Notes: generated by a model not told the origin, from the sequence alone. Counted from the stretch's first letter, positions 6,897 through 30,538 are shown. The stretch: DNA of 64,000 nt from an uncultured Actinomycetes bacterium (GCA_963755025.1 CAVWIH010000013.1:32001-96000), one strand, 5' to 3'. Translations and numbers: made by a program.

Positions 6897-7015
6897 CCCT
6901 ATTGGCGCCGAATGCGCCGAAGCGAGCCCACTGCCGCCGACCCCGGCTCCGCATCTTCCCTGCAAAGAGCCGATATCCGCCGAGATGGGCCGACAGCCGC
7001 CGATGGCTCGATGAA

Positions 7016-7046
7016 ATCGCTGGTTCGATTCCAGCCGGGGGCGCCA
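7016..7046 (+). other. tRNA 3' fragment (T-arm, acceptor strand, CCA): att-site core; isotype uncertain
   Basis: GCTGG-TTCGATT-CCAGC CGGGGGC G CCA; no D-arm or matching 5' acceptor strand upstream. Confidence 0.75.
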
Positions 7047-7238
7047 GAAATACCTGCTCAGGGCTGTTTCCTATTGTGCGGTTCGCGCACGATACTTCCG
7101 AAGCGGCAGAACTGCCGACATTTTGCCGACGAGACTCCTAGTAATGCGTCGGCATGGCGCAGTATCCCTGAGCACGAATCGCTGATGCAGCCTCCGCATG
7201 TGACTCACCTGTTGTCCGAGGCGTAGGCTGACCGAGTC

Positions 7239-7583
7239 ATGGCCTTCAACGAACTTGAGCTGAAGCGCATCGACCACTCGGTCGGTGACCTGTGCCGGCG
7301 ATGCTCGCCTCCAGAGCACGCCGACGAGCTCCGCGTCGTCTGCCGTATCGACGGCCACGCTGTGAGCATCTACGAGGAACGGCCGCCATGGCGTGGCAGC
7401 GGCCCCTGGACAAGCCACGGCATCGCCCGCTTTCGCTTCTCCCGCGCCCAAGGCACCTGGTCGCTCTTCTGGATGCGCCAGGACCTGAAGTGGCACCGCT
7501 ATGAGCCCGAACCGCCGTCGCCAGATCTGGCCACGCTGGTCGCTGTCATCGAAGCCGAAGAGTTCGGCGCGTTCTTCGGGTAG
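7239..7583 (+). CDS. DUF3024-family protein
   Basis: IYEERPPW..IARFRF..WSLFWMRQDLKWHRYEP..FFG end. Confidence 0.8.
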   Translation: MAFNELELKRIDHSVGDLCRRCSPPEHADELRVVCRIDGHAVSIYEERPPWRGSGPWTSHGIARFRFSRAQGTWSLFWMRQDLKWHRYEPEPPSPDLATLVAVIEAEEFGAFFG

Positions 7584-7679
7584 TCTGGCGGCAAGCTCGG
7601 CGGGCGATCTCGATCGACGTGTTGGGCAGCGCCGCCGCCTGGCGATCGTCCACACGAGATCCCATGGAGAGAGGATGCT

Positions 7680-7892
7680 GTGAGTCCGGCTTGGTTTGGA
7701 CGAAGGCGCAACGGTTGGAACTTCCGGCCGGCCTCCTGGCAGGGGTGGGCGGTGACCGCGCTCTACGGTCTGCTTATCTACGTGGCTGCACGCGCCTTCA
7801 GAGTGCATCACACAGTGCTCTTCATCGCCGCGCTGCTCGTGCTTACGGTGGCGTTCGGCGTCGTTGCTGTGGCCACCAGCCGCAGCCGCTAG
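7680..7892 (+). CDS. Small membrane protein (WFxRRxxGWxxRPASWQGW family)
   Basis: 70 aa, two hydrophobic segments; paralog at 10499. Confidence 0.7.
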   Translation: MSPAWFGRRRNGWNFRPASWQGWAVTALYGLLIYVAARAFRVHHTVLFIAALLVLTVAFGVVAVATSRSR

Positions 7893-7987
7893 GAACCCAG
7901 GCGCCTGGACTGCGGCCTTCGGTATACAGCTTCACGGAACTTGCCGCCGGCTACCTTCGTGGCACTCTTAGACCACGGAGGGGGTAC

Positions 7988-8401
7988 ATGGCGTTCATCG
8001 ACAAGACCATCGCTGTGACGGCAGACGTGCGCGACGTCTACGATGCCTGGGCGGCCTTCGAGCACTATCCGAAGTTCATGAAGACTGTCGAGGCGGTGAC
8101 GCTCGTCGAGGAGGACCAGCTGCACTGGGTCGCCGTGATCGAAGAGGACACCGTTGAGTGGGACGCCGACTTAGTCGAGCATGTGGTCGACGAGAAGATC
8201 GCCTGGCGGGCCATCGACGGCCGTGAGACCGGTGAGGTGCGCTTCGAGAAGCTCGCCGCAGGCAAGACGATGGTCACCTACCAGCTTGAGTACGACCCGG
8301 CGGCCTGGGAAGGCGAACCCGACGCCGTGCGCCGCTGGATGAACCGCCGGGTCGACAGGGACCTCGATGCGTTCAAGAACATGGTAGAGGCCGCCGAATA
8401 G
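7988..8401 (+). CDS. SRPBCC/cyclase family protein
   Basis: VYDAWAAFEHYPKFM..WDA..IAWR..G.VRF..DLDAFK; GGAGGG RBS. Confidence 0.85.
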   Translation: MAFIDKTIAVTADVRDVYDAWAAFEHYPKFMKTVEAVTLVEEDQLHWVAVIEEDTVEWDADLVEHVVDEKIAWRAIDGRETGEVRFEKLAAGKTMVTYQLEYDPAAWEGEPDAVRRWMNRRVDRDLDAFKNMVEAAE

Positions 8402-8458
8402 GGAGCAGAAGCCCGTTCGCCGACCGAACGATTAAACGGGCAGTCGAGGAGCCACGAC

Positions 8459-8578
8459 ATGAGTCACACAGACCTTGCGGTAGCTGTGGCCGGGATCCTG
8501 ATCGCGGTCGGCTCCGTCGTGCTTGGCGCGTGGCTTGACCTGCGGCCATCAAGAGGCCGCGACAGGGAAGATCGCTAG
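8459..8578 (+). CDS. Putative 39-aa single-TM microprotein
   Basis: GAGGAG RBS, MSHTDLAVAVAGILIAVGSVVLGAWLDLRPSRGRDREDR*. Confidence 0.45.
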   Translation: MSHTDLAVAVAGILIAVGSVVLGAWLDLRPSRGRDREDR

Positions 8579-8951
8579 CTCGACCAGCGCCGGATCGTCG
8601 TCTGGGCGACTCGACCAACGGATGCCGTCAGGACGACGCTGGGCCACCATGGATCCGCACCCGGAGCTCCCCTCCTCGGTGCCACGCCCTCGGACCCGGC
8701 AACGATCGCGAGGGCATCTTCGCGCGCAGGGGGCCGCCAGCCAGAGCCGGGACGGCCTCTGTTCTTTTCGAGGGGGCAGCGCCCGTTGCACCGTCAAGTC
8801 GTTGCCAGCGCCGGTGATGCTTTCTGGCGGCCGCACCTTGTCACGGGCTCGCCAGCTGCCGAAAGCAAGTGCTGACGCGGTGCGCCGTGGCGCGCCGCGT
8901 CAGCCTCTCCCCGAGGCGCGGACTTGCGGCAGCGAAGCGATGGAGGTCTTC

Positions 8952-10260
8952 ATGAAACGGTCGATTGTCGTCCTGGCGGTGGCTCTGGCATGTCTGCTTT
9001 TGGCTCCCGTCGCGCTCGCCCAAAGCCGCGTCGGTTGCGACCCCGGCGGCAGCACCGGCTTCCACGCCTGCGGTACCGTATCGAGCGTCGACGTCGCAGA
9101 CAACCTGCTCACCCTCAACGTCACGGCCGGCTCCGCTGGCCTTCCCAGCCCCCTCACAGTGGCCATCACTCCCGACACGCAGATCAGCGGCGAAACACCC
9201 ATCGCCCCGCAGGCTTCGCCTGCACTGGGTTGCGGCGACAACACGGTCACCCTCGATCAGGTCGCAATCGGCGAGCAGATCCGCGTCGGCGGCACGATCG
9301 ATGCAAGCTCTGGCACGCCGGTCTACGATGCGCTGCGCATCAGCGTGCATCAGCCGCGCTTTTCCTGCCAGGGCACAGTGAGCGCCGTCGATGTCACCGA
9401 CGGCCTGCTGACAGTCGACTTCACCAATGGCTCAGACGATCTCGTCAGTCCCCTCATCGGTGACCATCACCGCCGACACGCAGATCACCGCCGATGCGGC
9501 GTCTGTCGCCCAGCCCTGCTCAGCCCTTGGCTGCGCCGACAACACGATCACCTTAGACCAAGTCATGGTCGGCGAGCAGGTCTCAGTCCGCGGTACGATC
9601 GACGCAAGCTCCGGCACGCCGGCCTACGACGCCCTGCGCGTCCGCGTGCATCAGCCGCGCTTCTTCTGCGAGGGTGCGGTCAGCGCCATCGACACCACGA
9701 ACAACATCCTCACAGTGGACGTGGCGCACGGCTCGGCCGGGCTTACCGGCACGATCGCGCTTACCATCACGCCCGACACGCGCCTGTTCTCGTTTGCCGA
9801 CTTCGCCTGCAGCCAGCTCGACCTGAGCCAGGTCGCCGTAGGCGACCAGGTGGCAGTCTGCGGCGTGATCGACGCAAGCTCCGGCACACCGGTCTACGAC
9901 GCGCGCGTGGTCTTCGACTGCGGCGCGATCACCTTGCCAGCTCCCGCCAGCCAGCCGACCGCGCTGTCGACGGGGGCAAAGAGCGTGACCCGGGGCAAGA
10001 GCCTCAAGGTCCACCTTCGCATCAGCGACGCCATGCCGGGCTCCTCGACGGCCAGCGTCTCGGTCGCCGTCGTCAATGCAAAAGGCGCGAAGGTCGCCGC
10101 AGGGACGGTCAGTGGCGTGGCGCTCAACAAAGCAGTCACCCTCTCCCTGAAGCTGCGCAAGAGCCTCATTCGCGGTACCTACCGCGTCGTCACCAAGGCG
10201 ACCGACGACGCCGGTAACCGTCAGCTGCGCGCCGGCAGCGCGGTACTGAGAGTGCACTGA
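8952..10260 (+). CDS. Secreted protein with three DUF5666-like (OB-fold-like) repeats and C-terminal Ig-like domain; frameshift ~9450
   Basis: Signal peptide MKRSIVVLAVAL..; repeats G.VS.VD..LT..IT.DT..V.G.IDASSGTP.YDA; joins ORFs 8523..10217 and 9427..10260. Confidence 0.75.
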
Positions 10261-10336
10261 TCACAGCCGCCTTGCGGCGGCAGGGCAGTAGCGTCATGTG
10301 GCGAGGGCGGTGTCAGGTTACTTGGCGCCGCCCTCG

Positions 10337-10401
10337 CTAGTTGCGAACAAGCCTCGCGATCAGCGCTGCCGTTTCTGCCTGCATCGCCGGGATGGCGTGC
10401 G
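10337..10401 (-). repeat. Degenerate copy of the integrase 3' tail (copy B)
   Basis: Minus strand reads HAIPAMQAETAALIARLVRN* versus integrase HAIPAMQEEAAALIAGLVFAR*. Confidence 0.85.
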
Positions 10402-10498
10402 CACGTCACAGTGGCACTCAGGCCATACGGCAGGAGACCGTTCGCGCCAGTGGAATAGACGCGGAGACGAGCATCACTCCTGTTCGGAGCGTTCCCGC

Positions 10499-10783
10499 AT
10501 GCCACACGATCAGCCTCACATAGCAGATTCCGCGGCCACGGACCGCCGCGAAGCGAAGGCTCCCGGCTGGCTCGGCACGCCCTGGTTCGCCCGCCGGAGG
10601 CTGGGCTGGGGCTACCGCCCGGCGAGCTGGCAGGGCTGGGCGCTGACCGTGCTGTTCGTCCTATTTGTCTTCTCGGCCAACGGCATGCTGCGGACCCATC
10701 ACGTCGATCTCTTCGCGGGCAGCCTGGTCGCGCTCTGCGTCGCCTACATTGGGGTGGCGGCGATGACGAGTCGCGCGTTGTAG
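10499..10783 (+). CDS. Small membrane protein, paralog of 7680..7892
   Basis: WFARRRLGWGYRPASWQGW plus two TMs. Confidence 0.7.
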   Translation: MPHDQPHIADSAATDRREAKAPGWLGTPWFARRRLGWGYRPASWQGWALTVLFVLFVFSANGMLRTHHVDLFAGSLVALCVAYIGVAAMTSRAL

Positions 10784-10796
10784 TTGCCCCGAGGCG

Positions 10797-11330
10797 ATGC
10801 GCAGGCCGTCGCTCATACTGGTTATCTCCGTCGTCGGGGGCTGGGCTTTCGGCCTGCTCGACTCGCGCATCCCAATGCCGAGCAGTTCGACTGTCTTCTG
10901 GACCGGCAACCTGGGCGCTCCCTGGCTCGTGCTGCCCTTTCTGGCCGGCTGGACCCAGCCCTCCAGACGGCGGGCTCTCCTGGGAGGGGCGCTCACCTGC
11001 GTCGCCGCTATGGTCGGCTTCTTCGGTCCGGGATCGGGCTGGGGACCGGCGTCCATCGCCTTCGTCGCCGGCTGGATTGCAGCCGGTGCGCTCGCCGGCG
11101 GGCTCTATGGTCGGTTCGGGTTCGCCTGGGGCCGCTCGCGGGCGCTGCCGGAAGGTCTGGCTCTGGCCGTGCCCTTCATTCTCGAGCCGCTGGCCTGGTC
11201 GTGGGGTTTCGGCTACTCGCAGGGCCGCCTGCCCATCTGGTATGCCGAACTGGCCTTCGGTCTGGCGCTCCTGGTCTGGGTGGTCGCGTCGAGCCGTGGT
11301 TCCTCGTCGAGCAAGACCGCGGAGCGCTGA
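10797..11330 (+). CDS. Multi-pass membrane protein (DUF6518-like)
   Basis: GNLGAPWLVLPFLAGW; about 5-6 hydrophobic segments. Confidence 0.65.
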   Translation: MRRPSLILVISVVGGWAFGLLDSRIPMPSSSTVFWTGNLGAPWLVLPFLAGWTQPSRRRALLGGALTCVAAMVGFFGPGSGWGPASIAFVAGWIAAGALAGGLYGRFGFAWGRSRALPEGLALAVPFILEPLAWSWGFGYSQGRLPIWYAELAFGLALLVWVVASSRGSSSSKTAER

Positions 11331-11529
11331 GTTCGCTTCTCGGGTTGCGGGTGCCGCTTGACCGGCGAACGCCGCCATGGCGACTGCGCTCTCCTCTTCC
11401 GACAACTCCCTGGAGCGCAACGTGTGCTGGCACGCGGCTTGGCCACGAGCGTATGCTTCGTGACGGCTTCGGCGTGCCTGGTTGCCTTCGCCGGACCACG
11501 GAAGGCGCCTGCGACCTGGGGGTTGTGTC

Positions 11530-13470
11530 ATGAGGAAGGTCCTGATCTGTCTCGCGCTCGTTTCCCTCTCCTTCCTTGCTTGGGCAGGAGCCGCCTCTGC
11601 CGCAACTTCCCGGCCGTCCGGCACCGTGGCCGTCGCTGCGCAACTGAGGAGCACGGTGCCGGTGACTTTCCTCTCTGACAACTTCGAGGGCGGGCAGAGG
11701 TGGGACCCCCGCTTCTCTGGCTGGATGATCACAACCGACCAGGCATACAGTCCAAGCCACTCGGTCCACGCTGCGGAGTACGGCTCGCCGATGCTGGTCT
11801 ACGGGCCGTTTGATCTCAGCCAGGCGACCGCCGCTACCCTTTCTTTCGAACTGTGGTACGACTCGCCCACGCTCACCAGCCCGCCGAGCTCGACGACCTG
11901 CGGCGCGTTTCTGACCGGCTACTCGACAGACGGTTCGCATTTCACCTTCCCGACACAATGGAGCGGCTCCACGGGGGGCACCTGGCAGGCGCAACGAGTC
12001 GACCTGGGCAGCTGGTACGACCAGGCAAACCAGGCCACGGTCAGCCTGCTCGGCGACGCCAAGGTCTGGATCGCCCTCTCAAGCTCGGTCACCTCGGACC
12101 TTGCCAGCTCCACCGAGGGGAGCTACGTCGACGACCTGACTCTGAGCGCCACCGTCGCCGACACAACGCCACCTACGACCAGCGTCGCCGGCTTGCCCGA
12201 CGGCTGGACGAACCAGCCGGTCACCCTCAGCTTCACGGCCACCGACAACGGCGGCGGCTCCGGTGTCGCCTACACCGAGTATTCGACCGACGCCGGAAAG
12301 GACTGGACCGAGGGCACCTCCCTCGTTGTCGCAGCGCCCGCCGACCACACGGGCGACGGCGTGCACGCCGTCCTCTATCGGTCCGTCGACAACGCCGGCA
12401 ACATAGAGACCGCCAAGAGCTGCTACGTGAGGATCGACACCCGGCGGCCGACTACGAAGGCGCCCGATCAGGCCTATGTCGCCCATGGCGAGACGGTCCG
12501 TCTGAAGTACACGGTCGCAGACCCGCGCCCGGGAAGCCCGACGGCCGACGTTGTGATCGCGGTCAAAAACAGCGCCGGCACGGTGGTCAAGACGCTCACG
12601 CGCAGTGCGATAGCGGTGAACAAGCCGCTCACGGTCAGCCTTGCGGTGCCGCACGCCTGGAAGCCGGGTGCCTACCGGTTCACGGTCTCGGCCACTGACC
12701 AGGCCGGCAACGGGCAGACCGTTCCTGCAGGCAAGAACAAGCTGACCGTCAGGCTGACCGACCAGGAGCTGGCGACGATCCTCGCAGGCAGGCTTGCCCG
12801 CCACACGGGCCATCTGGCCGTCGGCGTCCTTGACTGCACGAGCGGCGCCAGGGTCCTCTACAACGGCGGAGGCAGCTTCCACACGGCCAGCATCGTCAAG
12901 GCCGACATCCTGGCGACCCTCATGCTGCAGCATCAGACCGCCCGGCGCGCGCTCACCACAGCAGAGAAGGCGCTGGCCACGCGCATGATCGAAGACAGCG
13001 ACAACGCCGCCGCCACCGCGCTGTGGAACGACGTCGGTGGGGCGTCCGGCGTTGCCAGGGCAAACGTCCGCCTGGGCCTGCGCCATACCGTCATGAGTGT
13101 CGCTTGGGGTCTGACCGGCACGACGGCAAGCGATCAGCTGACGCTGCTGTCCGACCTCGTCTCAGTGCGCTCTCCCCTGAGTGCCGCCTCGCGGTCCTAT
13201 GAGCTCGGCCTGATGCGCCACGTCGAGCCCGGTCAGGCATGGGGTGTGACTGCGGCGGCGACGCCGGGAACGCCTTCTGCGGTCAAGAACGGCTGGCTCC
13301 CCGACCCGAACCTTTGGGTGATCAACAGCATCGGCGTGATCCACAACTCGGGACACGTGCTGCTCGTGGCCGTGCTTTCCAACGACCAGCCCGGCGAGGT
13401 CAGCGGCATCGCTCAGGATGAAGCAGCCGCGCTTAGCGCGGTACACGTGGCCACCGCGCTCGATCCCTGA
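11530..13470 (+). CDS. Secreted multidomain serine hydrolase (class A beta-lactamase-like C-terminal domain) with Ig-like modules
   Basis: Signal peptide; ASIVK (SxxK), SDN, KNGW motifs; central shared Ig-like module. Confidence 0.8.
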   Translation: MRKVLICLALVSLSFLAWAGAASAATSRPSGTVAVAAQLRSTVPVTFLSDNFEGGQRWDPRFSGWMITTDQAYSPSHSVHAAEYGSPMLVYGPFDLSQATAATLSFELWYDSPTLTSPPSSTTCGAFLTGYSTDGSHFTFPTQWSGSTGGTWQAQRVDLGSWYDQANQATVSLLGDAKVWIALSSSVTSDLASSTEGSYVDDLTLSATVADTTPPTTSVAGLPDGWTNQPVTLSFTATDNGGGSGVAYTEYSTDAGKDWTEGTSLVVAAPADHTGDGVHAVLYRSVDNAGNIETAKSCYVRIDTRRPTTKAPDQAYVAHGETVRLKYTVADPRPGSPTADVVIAVKNSAGTVVKTLTRSAIAVNKPLTVSLAVPHAWKPGAYRFTVSATDQAGNGQTVPAGKNKLTVRLTDQELATILAGRLARHTGHLAVGVLDCTSGARVLYNGGGSFHTASIVKADILATLMLQHQTARRALTTAEKALATRMIEDSDNAAATALWNDVGGASGVARANVRLGLRHTVMSVAWGLTGTTASDQLTLLSDLVSVRSPLSAASRSYELGLMRHVEPGQAWGVTAAATPGTPSAVKNGWLPDPNLWVINSIGVIHNSGHVLLVAVLSNDQPGEVSGIAQDEAAALSAVHVATALDP

Positions 13471-13530
13471 ACCGCATCAGTTTCACCGTCGATGGTGGGC
13501 GTTGGATGTCACCCTGCCGTCTCGTCTGCC

Positions 13531-13593
13531 CGCGAACACCGGCCCCGCGATTGCCTGAGCGGGCTCTTCCTGCATTCGCCGCGATGGTGTGAG
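13531..13593 (-). repeat. Degenerate copy of the integrase 3' tail (copy C)
   Basis: GCGAACACCGGCCCCGCGAT..CTCTTCCTGCAT..GATGGTGTG aligns with 16097-16157. Confidence 0.75.
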
Positions 13594-13658
13594 GTTGCCT
13601 ACGGTCGGTTGGTGAATGAAACTTGCGGCGCAAGGGTATGACTGCTACCATGCGTCAC

Positions 13659-14015
13659 ATGGCAGTCGACTCCCAACGACGAACAGAGCTCCTCCGCGGC
13701 GTCCTCGATCTCTGCCTGCTGGCTGTGGTGAACGAGGGGCCGGCCTACGGCTACGAGATGACCAAGCGGCTGCGCGAGCGCGGCCTGGCGATCGTCGGCG
13801 AGGGGTCCATCTACCCGTTGCTGGGACGGCTGGAGCGCGACGGCCTGGTCGAGACCTATCGGGCTCCAAGCAACGGAGGACCGATGCGCAAGTCCTACCG
13901 GCCCTCCGCCGCGGGTCGACTCGCGCTGGCGATGGGCGTGTCCGAATGGCGAGCCGCCCGCGACGCCGTCGACGGCGTGCTCGCCTCTGTCAAGGTCGAG
14001 GTGCTTCATGACTGA
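13659..14015 (+). CDS. PadR family transcriptional regulator
   Basis: LLRGVLDLCLL..YGYE..EGSIYPLLGRLE..RKSY. Confidence 0.9.
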   Translation: MAVDSQRRTELLRGVLDLCLLAVVNEGPAYGYEMTKRLRERGLAIVGEGSIYPLLGRLERDGLVETYRAPSNGGPMRKSYRPSAAGRLALAMGVSEWRAARDAVDGVLASVKVEVLHD

Positions 14016-14547
14016 CTACGTCGGGCGCTGCCGCGCCGAGTGGCGCCGTCTCGCTGTCCCCGATGCGCTCGCCGAGGAGATGGCGGCCGACCTGGCCTCC
14101 GACCTCTCAGAGGCCGAGGCCGACGGGATCTCGGCCGAGGAACTCTGGGGAAGCGATGCACGTTCGTTTGCGGCCTCCCTGGCCGCCGAGCGCGGCATCA
14201 TCCCGGCGCCGCTCAGCCCAGCGAAGACCCGCCGCAGGCCGCTCGTCTTGGTGGCCTTCACCGTCATCGCCGCGCTCGTGCTGATCTTCGCGGCACGGGC
14301 GCTCCTGACAGGGCAGCCCAAGGCGACACTCGTCGCCAACGTGTCCGGAACGCCGGGACATCACCTGCCATCAGCAACGCCGTTCCCCTTCGCACCACCC
14401 GGCGGGGCCCAGCGCGTCTTCGACCTCGGCAACCTGGCCGCCCCGATCGAGTGGATCCTGCTCGTCTTCGCGATCGTCGCGCTCGGCTTCGCCCTCTGGT
14501 TGTGGTCGAGTTGGGCCCGCTCGCGACCGCCCAGCATGCCAGTCTAG
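14008..14547 (+). CDS. PadR-associated membrane protein
   Basis: Overlaps PadR stop; EEMAADL..DL.EA..G N-terminus, two TMs. Confidence 0.7.
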   Translation: MTDYVGRCRAEWRRLAVPDALAEEMAADLASDLSEAEADGISAEELWGSDARSFAASLAAERGIIPAPLSPAKTRRRPLVLVAFTVIAALVLIFAARALLTGQPKATLVANVSGTPGHHLPSATPFPFAPPGGAQRVFDLGNLAAPIEWILLVFAIVALGFALWLWSSWARSRPPSMPV

Positions 14548-14587
14548 CCAGCTTTCGCGGCCGTTCGCTGCGGACCTGAGTTTGCGG

Positions 14588-14730
14588 CTACTTGGCAAAC
14601 ACGAGCCCCGCGATCAGCGCCGCCGCCTCCTCCTGCGTCGCGGGGACGGGGTGCAAGGAGGGGTCGAGGGTGATGCCAGTGTGACGTCCTGAGGCGCTCT
14701 CGCCACAAGGTGCAGACCGCCGTGCACGAG
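14588..14730 (-). repeat. Degenerate copy of the integrase 3' tail (copy D, longest)
   Basis: 52/58 nt identical to 16090-16147 by hand alignment; reads GITLDPSLHPVPATQEEAAALIAGLVFAK*. Confidence 0.9.
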
Positions 14731-14760
14731 GCTTCCACAGAGCGCTATCATGGGCAGCAG

Positions 14761-15726
14761 ATGGCTGTGCCAGAGCAAGACGACACGATCACTCCAGAAG
14801 ACTACGCGTGGAAGTGGGCCTGGCTGGACGGTCCGGCTCCTTTTGACGGCGATGTGGCAGTTCTCGAGGAGCTCTGCTTCGCCCTCGCCGAGCGACCCCA
14901 GGCCGTCTTGGCTTGCGGCGAGTGGCGCTGTCTGCTGCAGCGCAAGGAGAGTCCGACGCCAGCCGGGCTGCTGCGCCACTACGAGCTCGGCTTCTTCGTG
15001 CGCGCAAGGGCGCCTCACGCCGGCGAGAGCCTGACGGCGCCCGCCCCGCTCGTCACATCGGCCTCGCTTTTGGCGGACGGCTCCGATACCGCGCGGCGTG
15101 CCGCTCAGAGCGCCGTCGCCGTTCTCCTTCGGCAGGTCGCAGCGACCCTCGACTGCAAGGCTCCTGCGCCCGTCGCCATGAGGCCTCAAGGTGCGGTCGC
15201 AAACGAGCGCGTGGCCACGGCCAGAAGCCGAGGCCGACTGGTCCCCGTGCTCGTTGCCGCAGCGATCGTCGTCGCCTGTCTGTTCGGCCTGCGGGCCTTC
15301 GTTCTTGGCCCCTACCTAGTCCCGCCAAGCTCGCAGGCCAGCCCGCTGCAGCACAGTCGTCGCGTGCTCGTCGACCGCGCCGTCTACCATCTGCGGCCGG
15401 TGGGCCGCGGTAATCTGGTCGTGCTGCGCGACCCGGATGCTCACAACGAGCTTGAGATCCGCAAGGTGGTCGCCTTGCCGGACGACCTGATCGTGCTGCG
15501 CGCCGGTCGGCTGCTGGTCGACGGGGCAGCCATCGCCCGAGACCAAGCCCAGGGCGGGTCTGCGACGGGGGTGGCGCCGTTCGACTCTTGGCGGCTTTCC
15601 GCAGGTAGTTACGCTGTAGCCGTTCTGCACGACGGCGCGGCCACCTCGCTGGAGATCGTGCCACGCCGGGCGATCGTGGGCGAACTCCTTCTCACCTTCT
15701 GGCCTCCGCCGCACCTTCCGTTCTAG
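14761..15726 (+). CDS. Divergent signal peptidase I (S26)-like protein with N-terminal extension
   Basis: TM then PYLVPPSS..RVLVDRAVY..RGNLVV..IRKVVALPDD..VPRRAIVG..FWPP. Confidence 0.6.
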   Translation: MAVPEQDDTITPEDYAWKWAWLDGPAPFDGDVAVLEELCFALAERPQAVLACGEWRCLLQRKESPTPAGLLRHYELGFFVRARAPHAGESLTAPAPLVTSASLLADGSDTARRAAQSAVAVLLRQVAATLDCKAPAPVAMRPQGAVANERVATARSRGRLVPVLVAAAIVVACLFGLRAFVLGPYLVPPSSQASPLQHSRRVLVDRAVYHLRPVGRGNLVVLRDPDAHNELEIRKVVALPDDLIVLRAGRLLVDGAAIARDQAQGGSATGVAPFDSWRLSAGSYAVAVLHDGAATSLEIVPRRAIVGELLLTFWPPPHLPF

Positions 15727-15767
15727 GATGCCGAAGGCAGGCTGCCCGCCTTCCCCGGCATCTTGTC

Positions 15768-15827
15768 TGCAAAGATCGACCCCGCAATGAGCGACCCGCC
15801 TCCTCTTGCATCGCCGGGGTGGCGTGC
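15768..15827 (-). repeat. Degenerate copy of the integrase 3' tail (copy E)
   Basis: Minus strand reads HATPAMQEEA. Confidence 0.75.
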
Positions 15828-16089
15828 CGCGGCGACGTCTGCTGGTGCTGGCCGCGCCTCATCAAACTGCTCGACCGCAGGAAACGATGCTGGATGACCC
15901 TAGGGCGCAGTCGGCCGTCGATCGAGTGGCAGAAGCCCTGGCTGAAAGAAGGACGCTGAGCATGCTTGAGGTGCTCGGGCTGCCGGCGGTCGAGCATCTC
16001 GTCGGTTCCGAAACGATGTGCTCCATGTCGGCGAGCTGGCTGTACGGATGGCATGGGGCAGGATGAGGGGCCATCGCGAAGGCCAGGAG

Positions 16090-17328
16090 CTACCTTGCGA
16101 ACACGAGCCCCGCGATCAGCGCCGCCGCCTCTTCCTGCATCGCCGGGATGGCGTGCGAGTAGGTGTCGAGCGTTATCGACACGGTGGCGTGGCCAAGGGG
16201 CTCGGAGACGGCCTTGGGATGGACGCCGGCCTGCAGGGCGAGGGTGGCGTGGGTGTGGCGCAGGTCGTGCAGTCGGATCGTGGGCAGCATCGACTTCCTG
16301 ACGGCTTGGCGGAACCAGCGCGTCACGGCCTCGGGGTTGAGGTGCTGGCCGTCTTCGGCGGTGAAGACGTAACCAGAGTCGGTCCAGCCTTCCTGCCGCT
16401 GCGCCTGCTCGTCGAGCTGGCGGGCGGCTTGCCTTTCAGCACCGAGACGGTCTCGGCGTCGAGGGCGATCGAGCGCCGGCCCCGAGCCGTCTTGGGCTCG
16501 GAGACCACGACCTCGCGCCCCGAGGGGATGAGGGCGCGACGAACGGAGAGCCGTCCGGCCTCAAGGTCGAGGTCGTCCCAGCGCAGACCGAGAGCCTCGC
16601 CGCGGCGCATGCCGGTCATGGCGAGCACATGCCAGAGGTCGTGGAGCCTCTCGTCTGCGGTCGCCTTCAGGAACCCCCCGAGCTGCTCAGCCGTCCAGGT
16701 CTTCATCTCGCGGCGCTCGGTGCCGCGCTGATGAGGCGGGTCCGCTGCGTCGACGGGGTTGCGCTGCAGGTAGCCCCAGCGCGCGGCGTCGCGAAAGGCG
16801 CGGTGCAGGCAGGCGTGAACGTGGTGGATGGTGGCGGGGGAGAGGCCGCGGTTGCCGTTCTTGCGGCCCGACTCGGCGAGCTTCGCGTAAAGCCCGTTCA
16901 GGGTGGCGCCGGTGACTTTCTGCAACTTCACGGTGCCGATGAAGGGCACGACGTGGCAGACGACGTGCTGGACGTAGGAGTTGTAGGTCGAGTCCCGGAT
17001 CGTCGACTTGGCTGCCGGTAACCACTCGTTCTTGAGGTACTCTTTGACCGTGGCCTTGGTGGGCGCCACGTAGGTCTGCTCCTCGACCGCGACCATGAGC
17101 TTGTTCATGGCGGCGAGGCACTCCTTGCGGGTCGCGAAGCCGCCCTTGATGGCGCGCCGGCGCTCCTCGGTATCGTTGAGCTCGCCGGCGCACTTCGGAC
17201 AGGACTCCGCGCTGCTTGCGTTCCACCCAGAACCGTCCGTTGCAGGTCGTGCACCGCTGGGCGGCGGCCACGCCGACGTCGACGTTGTACTCCCAGCTCT
17301 CACCACGACGGCGGATGGAGCCCCTCAT
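16090..17328 (-). CDS. Tyrosine recombinase/phage integrase (frameshifts ~17215 and ~16430)
   Basis: TGMRRGE, PKT, HDLRH, LGH, TYSH catalytic motifs across ORFs 16687..17328, 16323..17306, 16090..16326. Confidence 0.92.
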
Positions 17329-18452
17329 GGTGTGGCCTCCTTCTCTCTGCCGCGTTCCTCTTGGCGTGAGGTGGCCTGTAGATAGCTCGAGCGAATCGCG
17401 CGCGGGTTGCCGTGGGGGTGCTGCGGGTACAGCTCGTTCCAGTGCGCGAGTAACTGGCCCCAGCTGGGCAAACGCGCTCCCGGCGCCGGCTGGCGACGCT
17501 CGCGGGCCACGAAGCGCACAAGCTCTGCCGACCAGATCGTCTGACGTGCGGAGGGATCGGTCGGAAGCCCGTAGTCGCGGTTGCGCGCCCGGCGGTAGAT
17601 GGAGGCCACTTCATCCGGTGATATCAGCCCTGAGCTCACCGTGATCACGTAGCGGCGCGATACGTCTGACGGGCACGTCGGCTCGCCTTCGGGATCTCGT
17701 GCGAACTCGACGAGCGAGGGGTAGGAGGTGACGAGCAGGGTCGAGGGCAGCTCGGGGCGGATGTCGGCAAGGAGCCATTCCACGGCCTCGCTCTCGCGGC
17801 ACCCCGATGCCCCTGCCAAGTGGCGCGCGAGATCGCGGAGATTGCGCAGCGGATAGCAACTCGCCGGGAAAGGCAGAGCGACGTCCTCGCCCGTGAGCCC
17901 GCGCCAGAGCAACACCTCCGCACCGCCCGAGTCGCCCTGAGCGGCGATGTATTCGGCGAGCCACCAGGATGCCGCTTCGCGGTCCATGAGCGGCTCAAGT
18001 TCCTCGTCGGTGCCGTCCGCCTCGAGGGCGCGCGTATCGCCGGTCAGCCATGCCCAGGCGGCTCGACGGGTCGACGGCGCGCCGGGGTTGATTGGCCGCA
18101 GCGCGAGCTTGAGACGGGCGTCGTCGCGCAGCCAGGTGAAGCCCAAAAGCACGCGTCCGAGGTGACCCTCTAGGTAGGCGCGCCACTGCGGCCCGGCAAG
18201 CGCCGAGTCCCCTGGCGGCTGCTCGGCGCGGGGCTCGTTGCGCAAGGTGCGGCGTTTCCTCGGGCTGAAGGTCGCACGTCCCTCCGCGACGTCACCAACG
18301 GCATCGACGAAATCCCGCGCATCGAGCTCCTCCAGGGGCTGCCCGTTCTTGTCCTCCAGCCAGGTGAGCTCCACGTCCGTGAGGCGGCCCTCACCTCGCG
18401 CGGCCAGGGCCTGATCGAAGCGGCTTCGCGCTGCCTTCTTCTCGTCTGCCAT
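17325..18452 (-). CDS. Hypothetical protein translationally coupled to the integrase; possible C-terminal HTH
   Basis: MADEKKAA.. start; ATGA overlap with int; C-terminal 'SWGQLLAHWN..YP..IRSSY'. Confidence 0.65.
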   Translation of the reverse strand: MADEKKAARSRFDQALAARGEGRLTDVELTWLEDKNGQPLEELDARDFVDAVGDVAEGRATFSPRKRRTLRNEPRAEQPPGDSALAGPQWRAYLEGHLGRVLLGFTWLRDDARLKLALRPINPGAPSTRRAAWAWLTGDTRALEADGTDEELEPLMDREAASWWLAEYIAAQGDSGGAEVLLWRGLTGEDVALPFPASCYPLRNLRDLARHLAGASGCRESEAVEWLLADIRPELPSTLLVTSYPSLVEFARDPEGEPTCPSDVSRRYVITVSSGLISPDEVASIYRRARNRDYGLPTDPSARQTIWSAELVRFVARERRQPAPGARLPSWGQLLAHWNELYPQHPHGNPRAIRSSYLQATSRQEERGREKEATP

Positions 18453-19063: not shown

Positions 19064-20070
19064 ACCCACATCCGACAGACCGTGCCCGCACTCGTACTCT
19101 GGTCCCGAGATCGCCCTGATGGTGTTCCCCCCGTCGATCCTGTGGTCCATTACGCTAAGCGGGGCTCGATCTTCGATCTGGTCGGCCAATCCAAGAAGGG
19201 CAAGACCACCTTCACGCTGCTCGCCTGCCGGGCCGTGCTCGCCGGCGAGCCCTTCCTCGGCACGCAGACCACGCGCGTCCCGGTGCTGTACCTGACCGAG
19301 CAGACGCGACCCAGCTTCCACGACAAGCTCGAGAGCGTCGGGTCCCTCCTCGAGCAGTCCGATTTCCGCGTACTGTTCATCGCCGACGCCACGGGCCTGG
19401 CCTGGCCCGAGATCTGCGAGATCGTACGCGCGGAGGTGCGCCGCCACGGCGTCGGTCTGGTCTACATCGACACGCTTACCGACTGGGCCCGCATCGAGAA
19501 TGAAAACGATGCCGCCCAGGCGCTGGCCGTGATGCGCCCACTTCGCCAGATCGCCGAGGATGGCGTGGCCGTGGTCACCGTCCGCCACTCTGGTAAGGGC
19601 AACCACGACGAGCAGGACGTGATCGACGCGGGCCGCGGCTCCTCGGCCTTCGCCGGCGTCGTTGACACGCTCTGCGTGATGGGCGCCGTGAGGGGCCAGG
19701 GCCACGCTAACCGACGCCAGCTTCGCCTGGTGAGCCGCAAGGACGGCATCCCCGCCTCGCTCACTGTCGAGCTCGAGGCGGGCGAGTATCGCTGCCTCGG
19801 CGACCGTGCCGACGTCGAGTGTTACTTGGCCAAGGAGGTTGCCCTCGACAATCTTCCCGATCGCTAGAGCAGGCCTGGACCGAGCAGCAGATCCTCAAGG
19901 CGGCTGGCAAGGCGTTATCGCGCTCGACGCTCAAGCGCGCCCTCACTGACCTCATGCGCGAGGGCTGCGTCTTCGGCAAGAAGGGCGCCGGTGCCGCGAG
20001 CGCCAAGGCCATCGGCTACTGGCTCAGTGACGGCCCGGGAGAACAGATGGGGCTCGGTCGTAATGAATAG
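19053..20070 (+). CDS. AAA_25/RecA-like (RepA-type) helicase with C-terminal winged helix; frameshifts ~19085 and ~19860
   Basis: Walker A GQSKKGKT, VLYLTE, Walker B LVYIDT, RHSGK, RGSSAF; tail in ORF 19819..20070. Confidence 0.8.
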
Positions 20071-20277
20071 CCTCCCCGCGACGCCTCTGCCGGCGGCCGG
20101 CCGCCAACTGTCCATATATAGAGAACTAGTACTGGACAGTTGCCGGCCCGGTGTCTTCCTTGACTCTCGGTTGGCTGCCCGGCCCCCGGCCGAAGGCCTT
20201 GGGGGCCGGGACAGCAGACACTCGAAAGCAGTCAAGGCCCTCAATGAGCGGTGGGGCCGGGCAAGCAGAGCGTCGTC

Positions 20278-20478
20278 GTGAGCCAAGTCCCGCCGGGCCG
20301 CTGGCAGGCCTTCACCGCCGTCGCCGCATTCTCGAGGACTGAAAAGGTGCTTGTGGTCTGCGAGTCACAGACGGTGCGCCGCCAGTATGAGCGCGCCGTT
20401 CTCAGACTCGGCGGCAACCTCGACAACGTGATCTTCCGCGTCGTCCCGGGTGTGTCCGCAACCAGGACTACGTCCTGA
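20278..20478 (+). CDS. Small hypothetical protein
   Basis: Protein-like ORF SQVPPGRWQAF..GGNLDNVIF within the co-oriented operon. Confidence 0.45.
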   Translation: MSQVPPGRWQAFTAVAAFSRTEKVLVVCESQTVRRQYERAVLRLGGNLDNVIFRVVPGVSATRTTS

Positions 20479-20604
20479 GCGTCTTGCGCGAACGCGTCAT
20501 CGTCCAATCACGGCATCCACCGTCAGCCGATCGCGCCGAAACCAAGAGGCGTGCCGTCGATGCTCGTCGGATCACAGCTTTGCTCACTACCGAAAGGAGA
20601 TCTC

Positions 20605-21980
20605 ATGTCCGTTGAGTCCATCACCTTGGCGTCTATCGTCGTCGCCGGGCTTCACCGTAAGGAACTCGGCGACATCGAGGCGCTGGCCGCCTCGATCGAC
20701 GAGCTCGGCCTGCTGCAGCCGATCGGGGTGACGCCCGATCGACAGCTGCTCTTCGGCCGGCGCCGCCTCGAGGCTTGCCGACGGCTCGGCTGGGAGGAGC
20801 TTCTTGCGGTTGTGCTGCCCGATCTGGGCACGGCGGTAGATCGCCTGAAGGCCGAACGAGACGAGAACGTCTGTCGCAAGCAGATGACGCTGAGCGAGCT
20901 CATCGCTGTCGGCAGGCGGCTCGAGGAGATTGAAGAGCCGGAGGCACAGGCGAGGAAGCGGGCCGGCAAGGCCTTAGCGTCATTTGACGCCAAGGTCGGC
21001 AAGACCGACAACCTGGTGGCCGCCTGCCTCGGCATGAGTGAGCCGAACTACCGGCGGGCGAAGCGAGTCGTCGAGGCTGCCGAGAACGAGGCGGCCTCCG
21101 AGGACGTGCGCCGCGTCGCGCGGGAAGCCCGGGAGCGGATGGATGCGACCGGTCGAGTCTGGGGTTCCTTCCGCAAGGTGCGCGAGGCGAGCAGCGAGCC
21201 AACGGTGACCGGGCTAGCGATGAGACTTTCCCCCCGAACGGGGCTCAGCGCCACGGGCACAGTGACACGCCCGACCGCTTCGTAGCGCGCATCGTCAGGC
21301 AGCTGGGCCCCGTCCTTGACGCCGCCGGTGTCTCGAGTCTCGAACTTGGTGGTTACGAGGCGACAGAAGAGCAGCTGGCGACGATCGCAAAGGCGATCAC
21401 TCTGCTGCAGGCGCTGCGGCGGCGGTTGACAGGGGCGACCGGCACGCCCGAGGCCGAGACGGATGCCGATACCGAGCCCGATACCGAGCCCGATCTCGGG
21501 TCTTCGCCGAATCTAGACGCAGGCGCTGCTGCCACCGTTGCGACCACGTCTGCGACGCCGGTCAGCGACGTGCGGGCCGTGACCAGTGCCACGGGCGGCG
21601 AGATTGGCGCAACGACGCCCATCCAACCGACTGCCGAGGCCGCTCCTGCGCTCTACCCCCGCGATGAATTCGAGCGGTCGCTGCTGCAGTCCGCGGCCGA
21701 TCAAGCGGCCGAGAGGGCCGTCCTCGGTGCCGATGAACTGGCGGCCGCGCTCTTTATGCCCCGTGCTCGCGCGGAACGCTTGCTTGAGATGCTGAGCGGT
21801 GCCGGGATCTGTGAGAACGAGGGCCAACGCCGTCGGGTGATCGTCGACCCTGAAGCCGTGAACGCGAAGCTGACCGTGTATCTGGACCGGGCGAACAGCG
21901 AACTCGTCGCGAACGGCCCGCAGTCTACGGCCCTCGTGGAGGACCGCCAGCGCGGCACCGTCGAAGGACGGCAGCTATGA
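20605..21980 (+). CDS. ParB/Srx N-terminal domain protein, probably one gene with a frameshift ~21200-21260; C-terminal FtsK-gamma-like winged helix
   Basis: LAASIDELGLLQPI..GRRRLEA..EN..R; second frame is open from ~21260 to 21980; AAGGAG RBS. Confidence 0.7.
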
Positions 21981-23283
21981 AGGATCCGACTCCGGATCGC
22001 TGGCGGAGCCGCATCACCGGGAGCGGCGCCGTCAAGGTGGGCGAGGCCAGACCCCACGCCCTCAACTTTCGCATCCACCCGGCTCACCAGTCCGCCGCCC
22101 TTGCGGCCTCACTCGACCAGGTCGGCTGGGTCCAGCAGGTCGTGGTCAACACGACGACCGGCAACATGATCGACGGTCATCTGCGGCTCGAGCTTGCCCG
22201 CCAGCGCGGCGAGTTCGAGTTGCCCTGCCTGTTCGTCGAGCTCTCCGAAGACGAGGAGCGCCTCGTGCTGGCGAGCCTCGACCCGATCGCCGCCATGGCA
22301 GAGGCCGACCGCGCCAACTGCAAGAGCTGCTGACCTCGATCCAAGGCGAGGGCGAGCAGGTGCGCGGCCTGCTTGAGGCGATCGCACGGCAGGAACGCAT
22401 CGAGCTTCCAGGGGTTGGGGGTCTGGTCGACCCCGACGAGGTACCCGAGGTGCCTGAAGAGGCCGCGACCAAGCTGGGTGACCTCTGGCTGCTCGGCCCC
22501 CACCGGCTCCTTTGCGGCGATTCCACGACGGCCGAGGACGTGCGGCGTCTGATGGCCGGCGAGCGCGCCGCTCTGATGGCCACTGATCCACCGTACCTGG
22601 TCAACTACCAGGGCGGCGCCCATCCGACAAGCGAGGCCAACAGGGGCGCCGCCACCAAAGACAAGCTCTGGGACACCTACATCGACCACGAGCACTCGGT
22701 CGAGTTCTACGTCGAGTTCCTGCGTACCGCCCTGGATTGCGCCCTGACCGAGGACGCTGCCGTCTACCAGGCCTTCGGCATCATGCGCACCGAGGTCATC
22801 TGGCAAAGCTGGCGGGAGGTCGGCTTGCTGCCCCATCAGGTGCTCATCTGGCTAAAGAGCCGCAGCGTGCTCACCTACAGCCGCTACATGTGGAACTACG
22901 AGCCGCTGATGTACGGCTGGCGCGAGGGCCACATGCCGGCCACCAAGCCGCCGGCCGACGCCAAGGCCGTCTGGGAGATCGGCAGCGCGATCGAAGACGG
23001 CGCCGGCTCGATCCATCCCACGATGAAGCCGGTCGAGCTCATCCGTCGGCCGATCGGCTACCACACCACGCCCGGCGGGCTGATCTACGAGCCCTTCTCG
23101 GATCCGGCACCGCGATCGTCGCCGCCGAGACAGCGGCCGGCACTGCTACGCGCTCGAGCTCTCGCCCCGGCTTCGTCGATGTTGCCGTGTCCGTGCACGG
23201 TTCACGGTGGCCAGGCGACCCTCGAGGGCGACGGCCGCAACTTCGCAGAGATCGCCGCCGAGCGTCTCGCAGGCTCCAACTGA
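21977..23283 (+). CDS. Phage-type DNA methyltransferase (ParB-like N-terminus + N4/N6 MTase); frameshifts ~22320 and ~23100-23200
   Basis: IDGHLR, LGPHRLLCGDST, DPPY, HPTMKP, EPF.GSGT. Confidence 0.85.
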
Positions 23284-26642: not shown

Positions 26643-27161
26643 TCAGAGTGTGGGCGTATCTGTCATCAGACGCACATCCTGCATCGGCATGAACAGGTGG
26701 AGAGGGTGCGTCGGCGACTCCTCAAAGCCGTAGCGCTCATAGAACCCACGAACGTGATCATCCTTGGCGTGAACCAGCACGGCTCGTGCTGCAATCGTGT
26801 CTGCTACTTGCGCGCAGCGTAACAAGGCGTTGACAAGCATCGCCTCTCCAGGCCGCTTACTTTGTTCCGACCGATCGACAGCCAGGCGCCCAATCAAGAA
26901 AACAGGGATAGTCGAGTAGCTCGGCGTTTCGGCCAAGCGGGGAGTGACCTCTGCCCGGTCGACCGACGATGCGGCAAGACTGTAGAAGGCAACGACTCGA
27001 CTGCCGCGGGGGGCGACGAACGTCCGCGCATTGTCGGCCTCCTGGTCAAGAACAGCTCGGCCCGTGAGGTAGCGGTTCAGGGCGTCGACACTGCAATCAA
27101 ACTCTCGGACGTCGTGACTGTTGTTTAGAGGCTCCGGTTCGAAAAGCGCTTCAGCGCTCAA
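26643..27161 (-). CDS. GNAT acetyltransferase toxin (TacT/AtaT type)
   Basis: HDVREFDC..LN.YL, IGRLAVD, LVHAKDD..FYERYGF. Confidence 0.8.
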   Translation of the reverse strand: MSAEALFEPEPLNNSHDVREFDCSVDALNRYLTGRAVLDQEADNARTFVAPRGSRVVAFYSLAASSVDRAEVTPRLAETPSYSTIPVFLIGRLAVDRSEQSKRPGEAMLVNALLRCAQVADTIAARAVLVHAKDDHVRGFYERYGFEESPTHPLHLFMPMQDVRLMTDTPTL

Positions 27162-27350
27162 CGAACGGGCTCGGCCTAGAGGCGGCTGCCCTCAGGGCGT
27201 CAGGGACGCGCGCCGGCCGTTCCAACAGCGCCGTGAACTCGCTCCACTTGTCGGGCGGAAGAACAAATCGCGTCTGGTCTGCCAGAACGTCCTCAGCCGA
27301 GCGAAGCGCAGCCTGCCGCATGAACTGGCTAACCGGCACCTGGCTCGCCT
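27151..27350 (-). pseudogene. DUF1778 (TacA) antitoxin, C-terminal part, fused in frame to the upstream propeller fragment
   Basis: VSQFMRQAALRSAEDVLADQTRFVL..WSEF..LLERP; overlaps the toxin start. Confidence 0.75.
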
Positions 27351-29178: not shown

Positions 29179-29505
29179 GGTGTCCCCCCCAACTGGCTCG
29201 AATGCTGATGTCGATAGTACAGCCTTGCCGCTGGAAAGACAGAGCGCAGCCCAATAGCCAGACAACCAGCCATGGTGAACGACTGTGATGTCGTCATCAG
29301 GGGCGCCAACACCCCGATCGGCGGCAGAAAGCCGATAGTCATGAGCGCCAGCCGCTTGAAGTCGAGATTGCCGACACGATGCCGACAAGACGCATCGTCA
29401 CAGCCCGGCACGGCTCGATGCCTGTGAGCACCAGGCCACGCCAGAACCCTGGACTATGCAGCACAATCGCGTCCAGCCAAATACCGCCGGGCACTGTGAA
29501 GTCAC

Positions 29506-29551
29506 GTCTGCAAAACCTTAATCGCCGGTTCGACTCCGGCCGCCGCCTCCA
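29506..29551 (+). other. tRNA-Cys(GCA) 3' fragment: att-site core
   Basis: CT-GCA-AA ACCTT AATC GCCGG-TTCGACT-CCGGC CGCCGCC T CCA; 5' half absent. Confidence 0.85.
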
Positions 29552-29746
29552 AGAAAACACCTGCTCAGGGCGTTTTCTCTGCTCCGTGACCTCCCTCCCG
29601 AAGCCGTGATCGGCACCGCCGGCCCTTCGTGCAGCGCGGGCTTGGCGTGGCGCACCCGGTTCCCACTTGTCCTGCCGGCAGAAGCGAGTATGGTGCGCCC
29701 AGGCGGGCCGTCTTCACCCGCGCCCCACTTTCCGTAAGGAGGCAAC

Positions 29747-30283
29747 GTGACAGGTGAGGCAGGGCGTGTCGTGATGGGCGGCAGCTCCGGCATCGGCGAA
29801 GCGACGGCCAAGCTCTTCGCCGCGCGCGGCGCCGAGGTGGTCATAGCGGGTCGCGACGAGAGCAAGCTGGCGCGCGCCCAGGCAGCGTGCGGCGCGAGCA
29901 GGGCCGAGGTCGTCGATGGCACCGTGCCGGCCGCCCTCAACGCGTTCTTCGCGAAGCTGGGATCCTTCGACCATCTGGTGCTTTCTCAGAGCGGCGGCAA
30001 GGGAGCGGGAGCGTTCGGTCGACTCGAGCTTGGTGGGCTGCGCGCGGCCTTCGAGGCCAAGTTCTGGGCCTACGTGCAGATCCTCCAGGCGGCGCTGCCG
30101 ACGCTGCGTGCCTCGGCCACGCTGGTGAGTGCGGGCTCGGCCCGCGCCGCCTTGGCCGGCACCAGCGGTCTGGCGGCCATCAACGGCGCCCTTGAGGCGA
30201 TGGTCGCTCCCCTGGCCGGCAACGGCTTCATGATCGCTACCGTGGTCGAGGTCGACGGTGGGGGGCACCTCGCCCGGGGCTAG
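29747..30283 (+). pseudogene. Short-chain dehydrogenase/reductase with internal deletion
   Basis: GGSSGIG; jumps from ALEAMVAPLA to NGFM..VDGG, lacking the RVNAVSPG segment. Confidence 0.7.
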
Positions 30284-30328
30284 TGACCGTCAAGCGGCGC
30301 CAGGCGGGGCAAGGCGTCGCTGCCTGAC

Positions 30329-30388
30329 TGCGAACACAGGCTCGGCGATCTGCACTGCCGCTTCGTCCTGAAGCCGTAACGTGTGGTG
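30329..30388 (-). repeat. Divergent integrase 3' tail remnant (copy F)
   Basis: Minus strand reads HHTLRLQDEAAVQIAEPVFA. Confidence 0.55.
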
Positions 30389-30538
30389 CAGCGCGGGCCC
30401 GCTCCGCACCAATTGAGCCTGGCTAGAGGTCGCTCCCGCTGCCGCAGCACCCTGCCTCGCGACCGGGACCGGTCGGCGTTCCCTTGTCCGGGGCAAAGAA
30501 ATGATCTACGGTACTATCGTCATGGTCTCGGAAGTCGA

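Follow-up and report, generated by a model that had tools for sequence, protein, structure and literature searches.

How do the last codons of an integrase gene come to stand, several times over and always in one orientation, between the cargo genes of a genomic island? The question is raised by a stretch of 64,000 nucleotides (nt) of DNA from an uncultured Actinomycetes bacterium (GCA_963755025.1), referred to here as the window, which corresponds to C13:32001-96000 in an assembly of 3.37 Mb, 39 contigs and approximately 68% G+C. We designate the genome of the window G000; in it C13 carries the window itself, and C14, C15, C21 and C24 are further contigs mentioned below. An earlier note on this DNA had described a cassette-like array growing stepwise by recombination at the 3' end of the resident tyrosine integrase gene (int). 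Our reading is that the region is the cargo slot of a family of integrative islands that would target tRNA genes in uncultured Thermoleophilia, with the cargo lying between the attachment (att) end of the island and a convergent integrase. We lean towards the view, which we consider moderately probable, that such islands accreted serially at a tRNA gene and were then fused by deletions that left integrase 3' stubs, or tails, behind.

A blastn search of the int region (16081-17340) against the window returned six matches besides the gene itself; each lies on the int strand and aligns within the last 88 nt of the gene. These are located at 14587-14674 (85% identity, E 1e-22), 10341-10401 (89%, E 4e-14), 15780-15827 (86%, E 5e-8), 13532-13591 (78%, E 2e-7), 29604-29649 (E 1e-5) and 30329-30370 (E 1e-4). 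The matches that follow have E values of 0.001 or worse, involve other parts of int on both strands and are at the level of chance. The extents of the stubs, all on the minus strand, were refined by local alignment to int. Tail A (10336-10401; 60 matches, 6 mismatches, 2 gaps) represents the last 69 nt of the integrase gene and has an orthologous copy in the related genome G004. Tail B occupies 13532-13593 (48 matches, 13 mismatches, 1 gap), the 101 nt tail C 14587-14687 (84 matches, 17 mismatches, 1 gap) and tail D 15768-15827. Tail E (29591-29649; 45 matches, 14 mismatches) lies about 40 nt from a tRNA-Cys fragment and tail F (30319-30389; 51 matches, 15 mismatches) follows an SDR gene identified by Pfam at 29747-30283. 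A further, heavily decayed stub at 11365-11449 is weak when taken alone (59 matches and 26 mismatches in 7 blocks), and its position is that of a clear 99 nt tail after the same DUF6518 gene in G019.

Tails A-D, which correspond to the last 60-101 nt of int, and the faint stub separate blocks of plus-strand genes, with tails E and F placed beyond the next att site. Their translation in the integrase frame gives the peptide that follows the catalytic tyrosine, HAIPAMQEEAAALIAGLVFA and variants. The description in the earlier note of degenerate copies of the int 3' end between the blocks, all in the orientation of int, is borne out by both blastn and local alignment, and its statement that the cargo is entirely on the plus strand and convergent with int holds for all Pfam-supported genes between 7239 and 16088. 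Its figure of 6 differences in 58 nt for tail D was not reproduced; we find 51 matches, 8 mismatches and three one-base indels, with the frame broken.

The gene from which such tails are recognized, int, occupies 16089-17328 on the minus strand. PF00589 and PF14659 match in separate frames, and the PF00589 matches, on two frame pieces, place int in the phage integrase family. The catalytic motifs MRRGE, HDLRHT and LDTYSH are legible in the translations and are kept in 20 relatives. The frame is broken at two places in the assembly, and alignment with an intact relative of 417 amino acids (aa) splits into three frame pieces in place of a single uninterrupted frame. These breaks may be strain-specific or assembly errors, with the gene intact in the natural population, because public contigs from other samples show one-base length differences at or beside both of them. 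The gene stands beside the att end and is convergent with the tRNA, an orientation shared by G004, G007, L024 and L077, in which the tRNA-Arg is intact. The distance from the int stop codon to the tRNA ranges from 2.7 to about 9 kb and is occupied by cargo and stubs.

The stubs are common in related genomes. The relatives that bear the integrase are metagenome-assembled genomes of uncultured Thermoleophilia (Actinomycetota), and the public runs that contain parts of the stretch are labelled as soil, peat and wetland metagenomes. Within G000 a profile of the tail gave 12 matches with E < 1e-3, on a single strand of their contigs, some of them orphan tails close to the ends of contigs C15, C21 and C24. 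When G000 and 40 relatives were searched with the region, orphan 3' integrase fragments were present, among the matches listed, in at least 16 of these 41 genomes. A full integrase together with up to 3 kb of downstream sequence is available at 27 loci, 12 of which have at least one orphan tail anchored at the stop codon (14 when two internal pieces are included). For a second set, 42 loci were fetched independently with the integrase protein, the genomes being partly shared with the first set; 20 of the 42 have a full integrase and at least 3 kb downstream, and ten of these 20 carry one to four tails. All matches fall on one strand in each of the 19 loci of the second set with more than one match, and likewise in 11 of 11 arrays. 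The expectation that related islands would contain interspersed tails is therefore borne out.

We then considered the anatomy of the fragments. Once made non-redundant, the first set comprises 33 full-length integrase genes and 61 fragments, of which 53 are anchored at the stop codon, seven are unanchored, one is at a locus edge and none is N-terminal. Four of the seven unanchored fragments are true internal pieces; the other three are partial alignments of distant paralogues. The 44 fragments of the second set divide into 39 anchored, two internal and three N-terminal. The anchored fragments of the first set (n = 53) have a median length of 102 nt, the shortest measuring 40 nt and the longest 532 nt, and the stop-codon end is the sole constant. 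Homology between full-length integrase alleles also stops at the stop codon, and for this reason we take the constant outer end of the tails to be the natural end of the gene. The idea of tails as fixed boundary elements is not sustained by such a range of lengths, which is the 'random-length debris' that the earlier note had itself named beforehand as speaking against it. Within the window tails A, B and D do end within approximately 4 nt of each other, just after the catalytic tyrosine codon, but we do not claim a hot spot at this position: the onset of conservation and the detection limit fall there too, and there are too few independent cases.

The origin of the tails was addressed by comparing the 53 orphan tails, and the live genes over the same stretch, with the family majority sequence. 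Mismatches in the orphan tails number 212, 177 and 394 of 783 at codon positions 1, 2 and 3 (50% third), compared with 150, 93 and 422 in the live genes (63% third). In every segment, orphan tails match the majority sequence with the same mean identity as live genes do. The third-position bias and the equal identity support the suggestion that the tails come from distinct, once-functional integrase alleles and not from local duplication; the excess of synonymous differences first remarked on in a single copy holds on this larger sample. Indels are present in 18 of the 53 orphan tails, and together with the excess of first- and second-position changes over the live genes they indicate that the tails decay as pseudogenes would.

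Such decay bears directly on an integron-like explanation, in which the integrase would recognize a site in its own last codons and so capture and excise cassettes bounded by tails on its downstream side. Arrays with a uniform orientation are indeed widespread, as that explanation would predict, and the outer tail end is not only the sole constant boundary but also a point within a few nucleotides of which homology breaks. This last argument is weakened by the behaviour of the full-length alleles, since any comparison would place the boundary at the stop codon where their homology ends. Five tail regions folded on both strands (ten folds) gave z values from -0.17 to +1.69, that is no folding, and palindromes of the attC type are lacking. 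Nor is there an excess of synonymous constraint: among 20 live alleles codon identity in the tail is 0.69, compared with values of 0.49-0.81 along the gene. In the orphan tails the outer end is no better kept than the inner end (conservation of 0.83 and 0.80, respectively). The TGCCGAC arm repeats and the tRNA-type core that characterize the att sites of the family are absent from the tails, and at their inner ends the tails stop anywhere between 40 and 532 nt from the stop codon.

The possibility of a recombination site within the coding sequence of the tail was accordingly rejected on the synonymous identity and the equal conservation of the two ends. A likeness between the tail end and a tRNA T-arm, noticed by eye, covers about 9 nt with an indel and is inverted; it was dismissed as chance. 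We consider the integron-like, site-specific mechanism improbable, and give equally little credence to the broader proposal that the last codons of the integrase are a working site at which the enzyme, alone or with host recombination, captures and releases tail-bounded modules. Of the cassette-like stepwise accretion proposed for the int 3' end, the modularity stands, as set out below, and the integron-like mechanism is not supported, given the variable lengths and the lack of hairpins, constraint and arms.

The att sites of the island family are found elsewhere. At the left end the core is formed by the 3' 30 nt of tRNA-Arg(CCU) (7017-7046, plus strand), which include a 25-mer identical to an intact tRNA-Arg at C14:616-691; homology with the flank of that intact gene starts at 7017. 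The core is followed on the plus strand by an island-end flank with TGCCGAC repeats, a putative P' arm, at 7047-7149 (a flank-profile match at C13:39047-39149, E 1e-30). A flank of this type, approximately 100 nt long, follows tRNA-Arg or fragments of it in G000, G003, G004, G007 and G010. A second core, the 3' 46 nt of tRNA-Cys(GCA), lies at 29506-29551 on the plus strand and matches the 3' half of an intact tRNA-Cys in L090, where the same kind of flank follows (L090:10560-10745). About 160 nt to the left of this second core a TGCCGAC-repeat motif at 29365-29402 (plus strand; a partial flank-profile match, C13:61365-61402) represents a putative P arm, and in L034 and L013 internal tRNA-Arg fragments have the motif at a comparable distance, about 160 nt, on their left. 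The tRNA core, the flank and the left-hand repeat motif together have the layout predicted for an attP with two arms. The tRNA remnants are partial; ARAGORN detects no tRNA in the window, and an Rfam scan of the whole window with E up to 1 gave a single chance-level match (E 0.18) and no tRNA or other RNA.

When the two ends are compared as direct repeats the cores do not match, the left being tRNA-Arg and the right tRNA-Cys. Because the left end is of Arg type and the right end of Cys type, the segment 7047-29505 is a hybrid between islands of the two types. The TGCCGAC arm motifs of the tRNA-Arg sites recur at the tRNA-Cys core, and on this basis there appears to be one island family with two tRNA targets. 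The contig of the window holds a second tRNA-Arg fragment of 50 nt (C13:2211-2260), followed by a full integrase at C13:5000-6316. We also observe that at the end of C14 (C14:1-700) the intact tRNA-Arg is followed by a second flank and DUF3024 copy, 77% identical to the sequence at 7017-7587 of the window, with the DUF3024 product 61% identical at the protein level. The end of C14 is probably an assembly break inside a tandem island array.

Tandem arrangement is most evident in G010:C3, where five copies of the tRNA-Arg 3' end in one orientation occur at 43.5, 82, 113.6, 142.5 and 161.8 kb, spanning about 120 kb. As full integrases or stubs occur 5-9 kb to the right of these co-oriented copies, whole islands are arranged in tandem, every one of them accompanied by a stub array, and such islands provide an ordinary source of extra integrase genes. 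Other contigs or genomes have two such copies (G010:C5 and G024), three (G013), one with a mismatch (G014) or none (G011). In the G010 island between 142.5 and 161.8 kb the island's own integrase is shortened to 534 nt. Internal att copies of the kind expected for cis-mobilizable elements (CIMEs) are thus present at the scale of whole islands (five on G010:C3, two on C13) and were not found between the stubs in the arrays.

The following sequence of events, which we infer, is the simplest that accommodates the tandem islands, the hybrid segment and stubs that come from foreign alleles and vary at their inner ends. Islands of the family would accrete in tandem at tRNA-Arg or tRNA-Cys, and a deletion would then take the 5' part of an integrase, the backbone behind it and the internal att copy, so that the cargo of one island, with its integrase 3' stub, would become joined to the cargo of the next. 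Composites that kept one working integrase would stay mobile and spread, a filter that would make 3' stubs common and 5' fragments rare. In a second step the stubs, being short direct repeats related to all live integrases, could support homologous exchange that swaps the neighbours of modules and gives the array its cassette-like look.

The rarity of 5' fragments is relevant to another possibility, that integrase genes were insertion targets in which foreign DNA split off the 3' part and the 5' remainder was lost later. One locus, G077:C4, has the expected appearance: an N-terminal integrase piece of 730 nt lies 1.4 kb beyond a PadR gene pair that is itself preceded by a 47 nt tail, so that two pieces on the same strand flank about 2.4 kb including the pair. 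In this locus (L087) the N-terminal piece, at 6977-7703, ends just before the first catalytic arginine motif, and the tail is at 10166-10212. The two pieces, approximately 2.4 kb apart, are either a split gene or two unrelated remnants, and as they may stem from different genes the example loses force. Few N-terminal pieces exist (none among the 61 fragments of the first set, three among the 44 of the second), and no inserting element, repeat or recombinase is seen at the inner ends. We regard insertion into integrase genes as a very doubtful explanation of the arrays.

The modules bounded by the stubs were compared between genomes. One of them is the PadR regulator with its overlapping partner gene (13623-14547, plus strand; PF03551, E 2e-20), a pair present in 10 places in seven of 89 family genomes. 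The inner junction between tail B and the PadR gene is identical in the window, G007, G010:C3 and G077:C23, which represent two genera. Another tail lies to the right of the PadR unit in three of the four, with lengths of 114, 119 and 534 nt; in G077:C23 there is none in the 378 nt available. The tail preceding the pair in G077:C4 differs from tail B, as does the junction. Five further copies of the pair have no tail in the flanks fetched, two of the five being cut by contig ends, and the module has its own operator-like upstream region, which is conserved in the tail-less contexts.

The DUF6518 gene (10797-11330, plus strand; PF20128, E 2e-8), a homologue of which lies between two tails in G019, has a tail on its right whose position is the same in G004 and G019 as in the window; the left tail differs. 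The 662 aa protein encoded at 11482-13470 (plus strand), with an immunoglobulin (Ig)-like domain and a class-A beta-lactamase-like serine hydrolase domain (PF19077, PF13354), lies between tails in G010 too, and in three genomes a tail occupies one and the same place after the hydrolase gene. An attempt to read the left junction of the hydrolase block as a longer decayed integrase remnant gave an alignment too weak for use. The window and G004 are 96.5% identical over 7987-13551, up to the tail after the hydrolase gene. Past this break G004 has a different 91 nt tail, a putative SnoaL-like open reading frame (ORF), assigned by reading the sequence, and an intact integrase that is 77% identical. 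The claim that block boundaries coincide with tails is upheld by the G004 break and by the PadR junction with its four left neighbours.

Because stub-bounded modules recur with different neighbours, we think that the stubs probably also act as homology patches. Might this be the main route by which cargo is gained? Stub-bearing modules, arriving as circles or in incoming DNA, would then enter by RecA-type recombination between a stub and the 3' end of a live integrase or another stub; the first making of a stub would be rare, and stubs would be reused. The tail-B-plus-PadR junction, kept in four genomes of two genera beside four unrelated left neighbours, is what such a process would produce. 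Although the four copies of tail B share the junction, their middle parts encode different allele types, which suggests exchange inside tail B and is as expected for this route. The break in homology between the window and G004 at a tail also fits, as do the exact runs that tails C and A share with the int tail, 32 and 24 nt, respectively.

The remaining evidence is less favourable to this route. The exact runs in the other tail pairs of the window measure just 6-12 nt and the tails are 78-89% identical to int, so that homologous exchange is plausible for tails C and A, not for other pairs. The G004 break is at the outermost edge of the tail, where no homology is left on one side. Left-tail junctions of the DUF6518 gene differ between G019 and the window, and the second, independent junction of a tail with the PadR pair in G077:C4 implies that new junctions are not rare. 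Short Logan contigs from 20 public runs contain parts of the stretch, and in the four runs examined we saw no tail-to-tail circle or joint and no clean deletion of a module, although contigs of 0.2-1.5 kb are too short to show absence. Many tail contexts in these contigs break at 16097-16100, and one variant joins the end of the DUF3024 gene straight to the integrase tail, a minimal form of the array. We therefore regard homology-driven cassette exchange as unlikely to be the main route of gain, while giving it more weight than the site-specific and insertional explanations.

Our preferred account, serial accretion followed by deletion, has difficulties of its own, and several observations weigh against it. 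Firstly, no tRNA fragment or flank remnant was found next to stubs inside the arrays, and because none adjoins any in-array stub each fusion would need complete removal of the internal att. Secondly, 45 of the 53 anchored fragments are 175 nt or shorter, whereas 11% would be expected under a uniform break point (P = 3e-35). Survivorship might account for the short lengths, in that long stubs would recombine more with other copies and be lost sooner, leaving survivors of about 100 nt. Thirdly, the DNA to the right of the 534 nt stub in G010 has no recognizable mobile backbone; its genes look ordinary, coding for a solute-binding protein, a rhomboid, a DinB-like polymerase and glycosyltransferases. 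Fourthly, the DNA to the left of the tail-B-plus-PadR unit is unrelated in all four genomes, and in the comparison with G004 the near-identity to the window breaks off in the final two codons of the tail, not inside it. Deletion alone would leave both the new module neighbours and the break at the stub edge unexplained, and further exchange at the stubs would be needed. Finally, no before-and-after pair of genomes displaying a fusion was found.

The cargo between the att end and int is varied. The first gene, encoding a DUF3024 protein (7239-7583; PF11225, E 9e-32), is placed likewise, behind the flank, at C14 and in both G004 and G003. It is followed by an SRPBCC/polyketide-cyclase-like gene (7619-8401; PF03364, E 1e-13) and by a gene for a repeat-rich Ig-like protein (8523-10260), for which there is a weak Big_13 match, an uncertain start codon and a frame supported by third-position G+C at 9412-10260; this last gene contains three tandem units of about 300 nt that are 73-79% alike. 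An S26 signal-peptidase-like gene (14710-15726; PF10502, E 4e-14) completes the array before int, and all four genes are on the plus strand. A long minus-strand ORF at 10221-11732 has no Pfam match.

On the other side of int, the region 19082-23283 encodes an AAA_25 ATPase, a ParB-N-like protein and a DNA methylase, and a 406 aa ORF that overlaps the int start has no Pfam match, the gene not being found in the other loci searched. The genes upstream of int are likely to represent the island backbone. Just to the left of the tRNA-Cys fragment, on the minus strand, 27151-29388 encodes a protein of 745 aa with BNR/Ycf48-like repeats and a C-terminal TacA-antitoxin-like domain; the gene has many internal direct repeats of 26-48 nt.

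Tandem accretion at one att site is the basis of the ICESt1/CIME model in Streptococcus thermophilus. Integrons consist of the integrase IntI, an attI site and cassettes with attC sites. With the latter the arrays described here share small, promoter-poor, co-oriented modules beside a tyrosine recombinase gene and a short repeated element at each boundary. In contrast to the attC site, the boundary element here is a piece of the integrase gene, unstructured and variable in length; the modules lie downstream of the int stop codon and are convergent with int, whereas integron cassettes lie upstream at attI and have a common promoter; and the att site of the integrase is of the ordinary tRNA kind, with arms.

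In the SSV-type integrases of archaea attP is inside int, and integration splits the gene into int(N) and int(C). There, as here, DNA integrated near tRNA genes is bordered by C-terminal pieces of the integrase. Unlike the SSV-type case, the matching N-terminal halves are not found, as the fragment counts given above attest, the inner ends have no tRNA-like core and the break point varies by hundreds of nucleotides. Prophages and integrative and conjugative elements have cargo ('moron') slots between int and attP, with accessory genes between the integrase and the attachment site and the backbone on the other side. The present slot resembles these and differs in being punctuated by integrase stubs of other alleles.

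The closest likeness is to tandem accretion. A preprint on the tycheposon islands of Prochlorococcus mentions fragmented integrases and partial tRNAs in islands. Tandem accretion, as in the tycheposons and the ICESt1/CIME elements, has in common with our islands repeated integration at one tRNA gene, partial tRNAs between whole elements and degeneration of the older elements. The difference is that here the att copies within the arrays are gone and integrase 3' stubs alone remain, and that these stubs are regular, co-oriented and within the cargo slot of a single island, with the stub-plus-module unit recurring across islands. The literature that we searched on such islands includes work on tandem accretion, and in it we found no account of a regular array of integrase 3' stubs in a cargo slot.

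If the stubs were after all recognized by the enzyme, they would constitute a new kind of cassette system, without attC, in a tRNA-targeting island of soil Thermoleophilia. On our preferred account their interest is of a different kind. The gain of cargo by islands is usually inferred from partial tRNAs, and in this lineage it is integrase stubs that would record the joins instead. They could serve as markers with which to count and order past fusions in uncultured soil Actinomycetota, and could be used to test whether the scars of dead elements later act as homology patches that make cargo modular.

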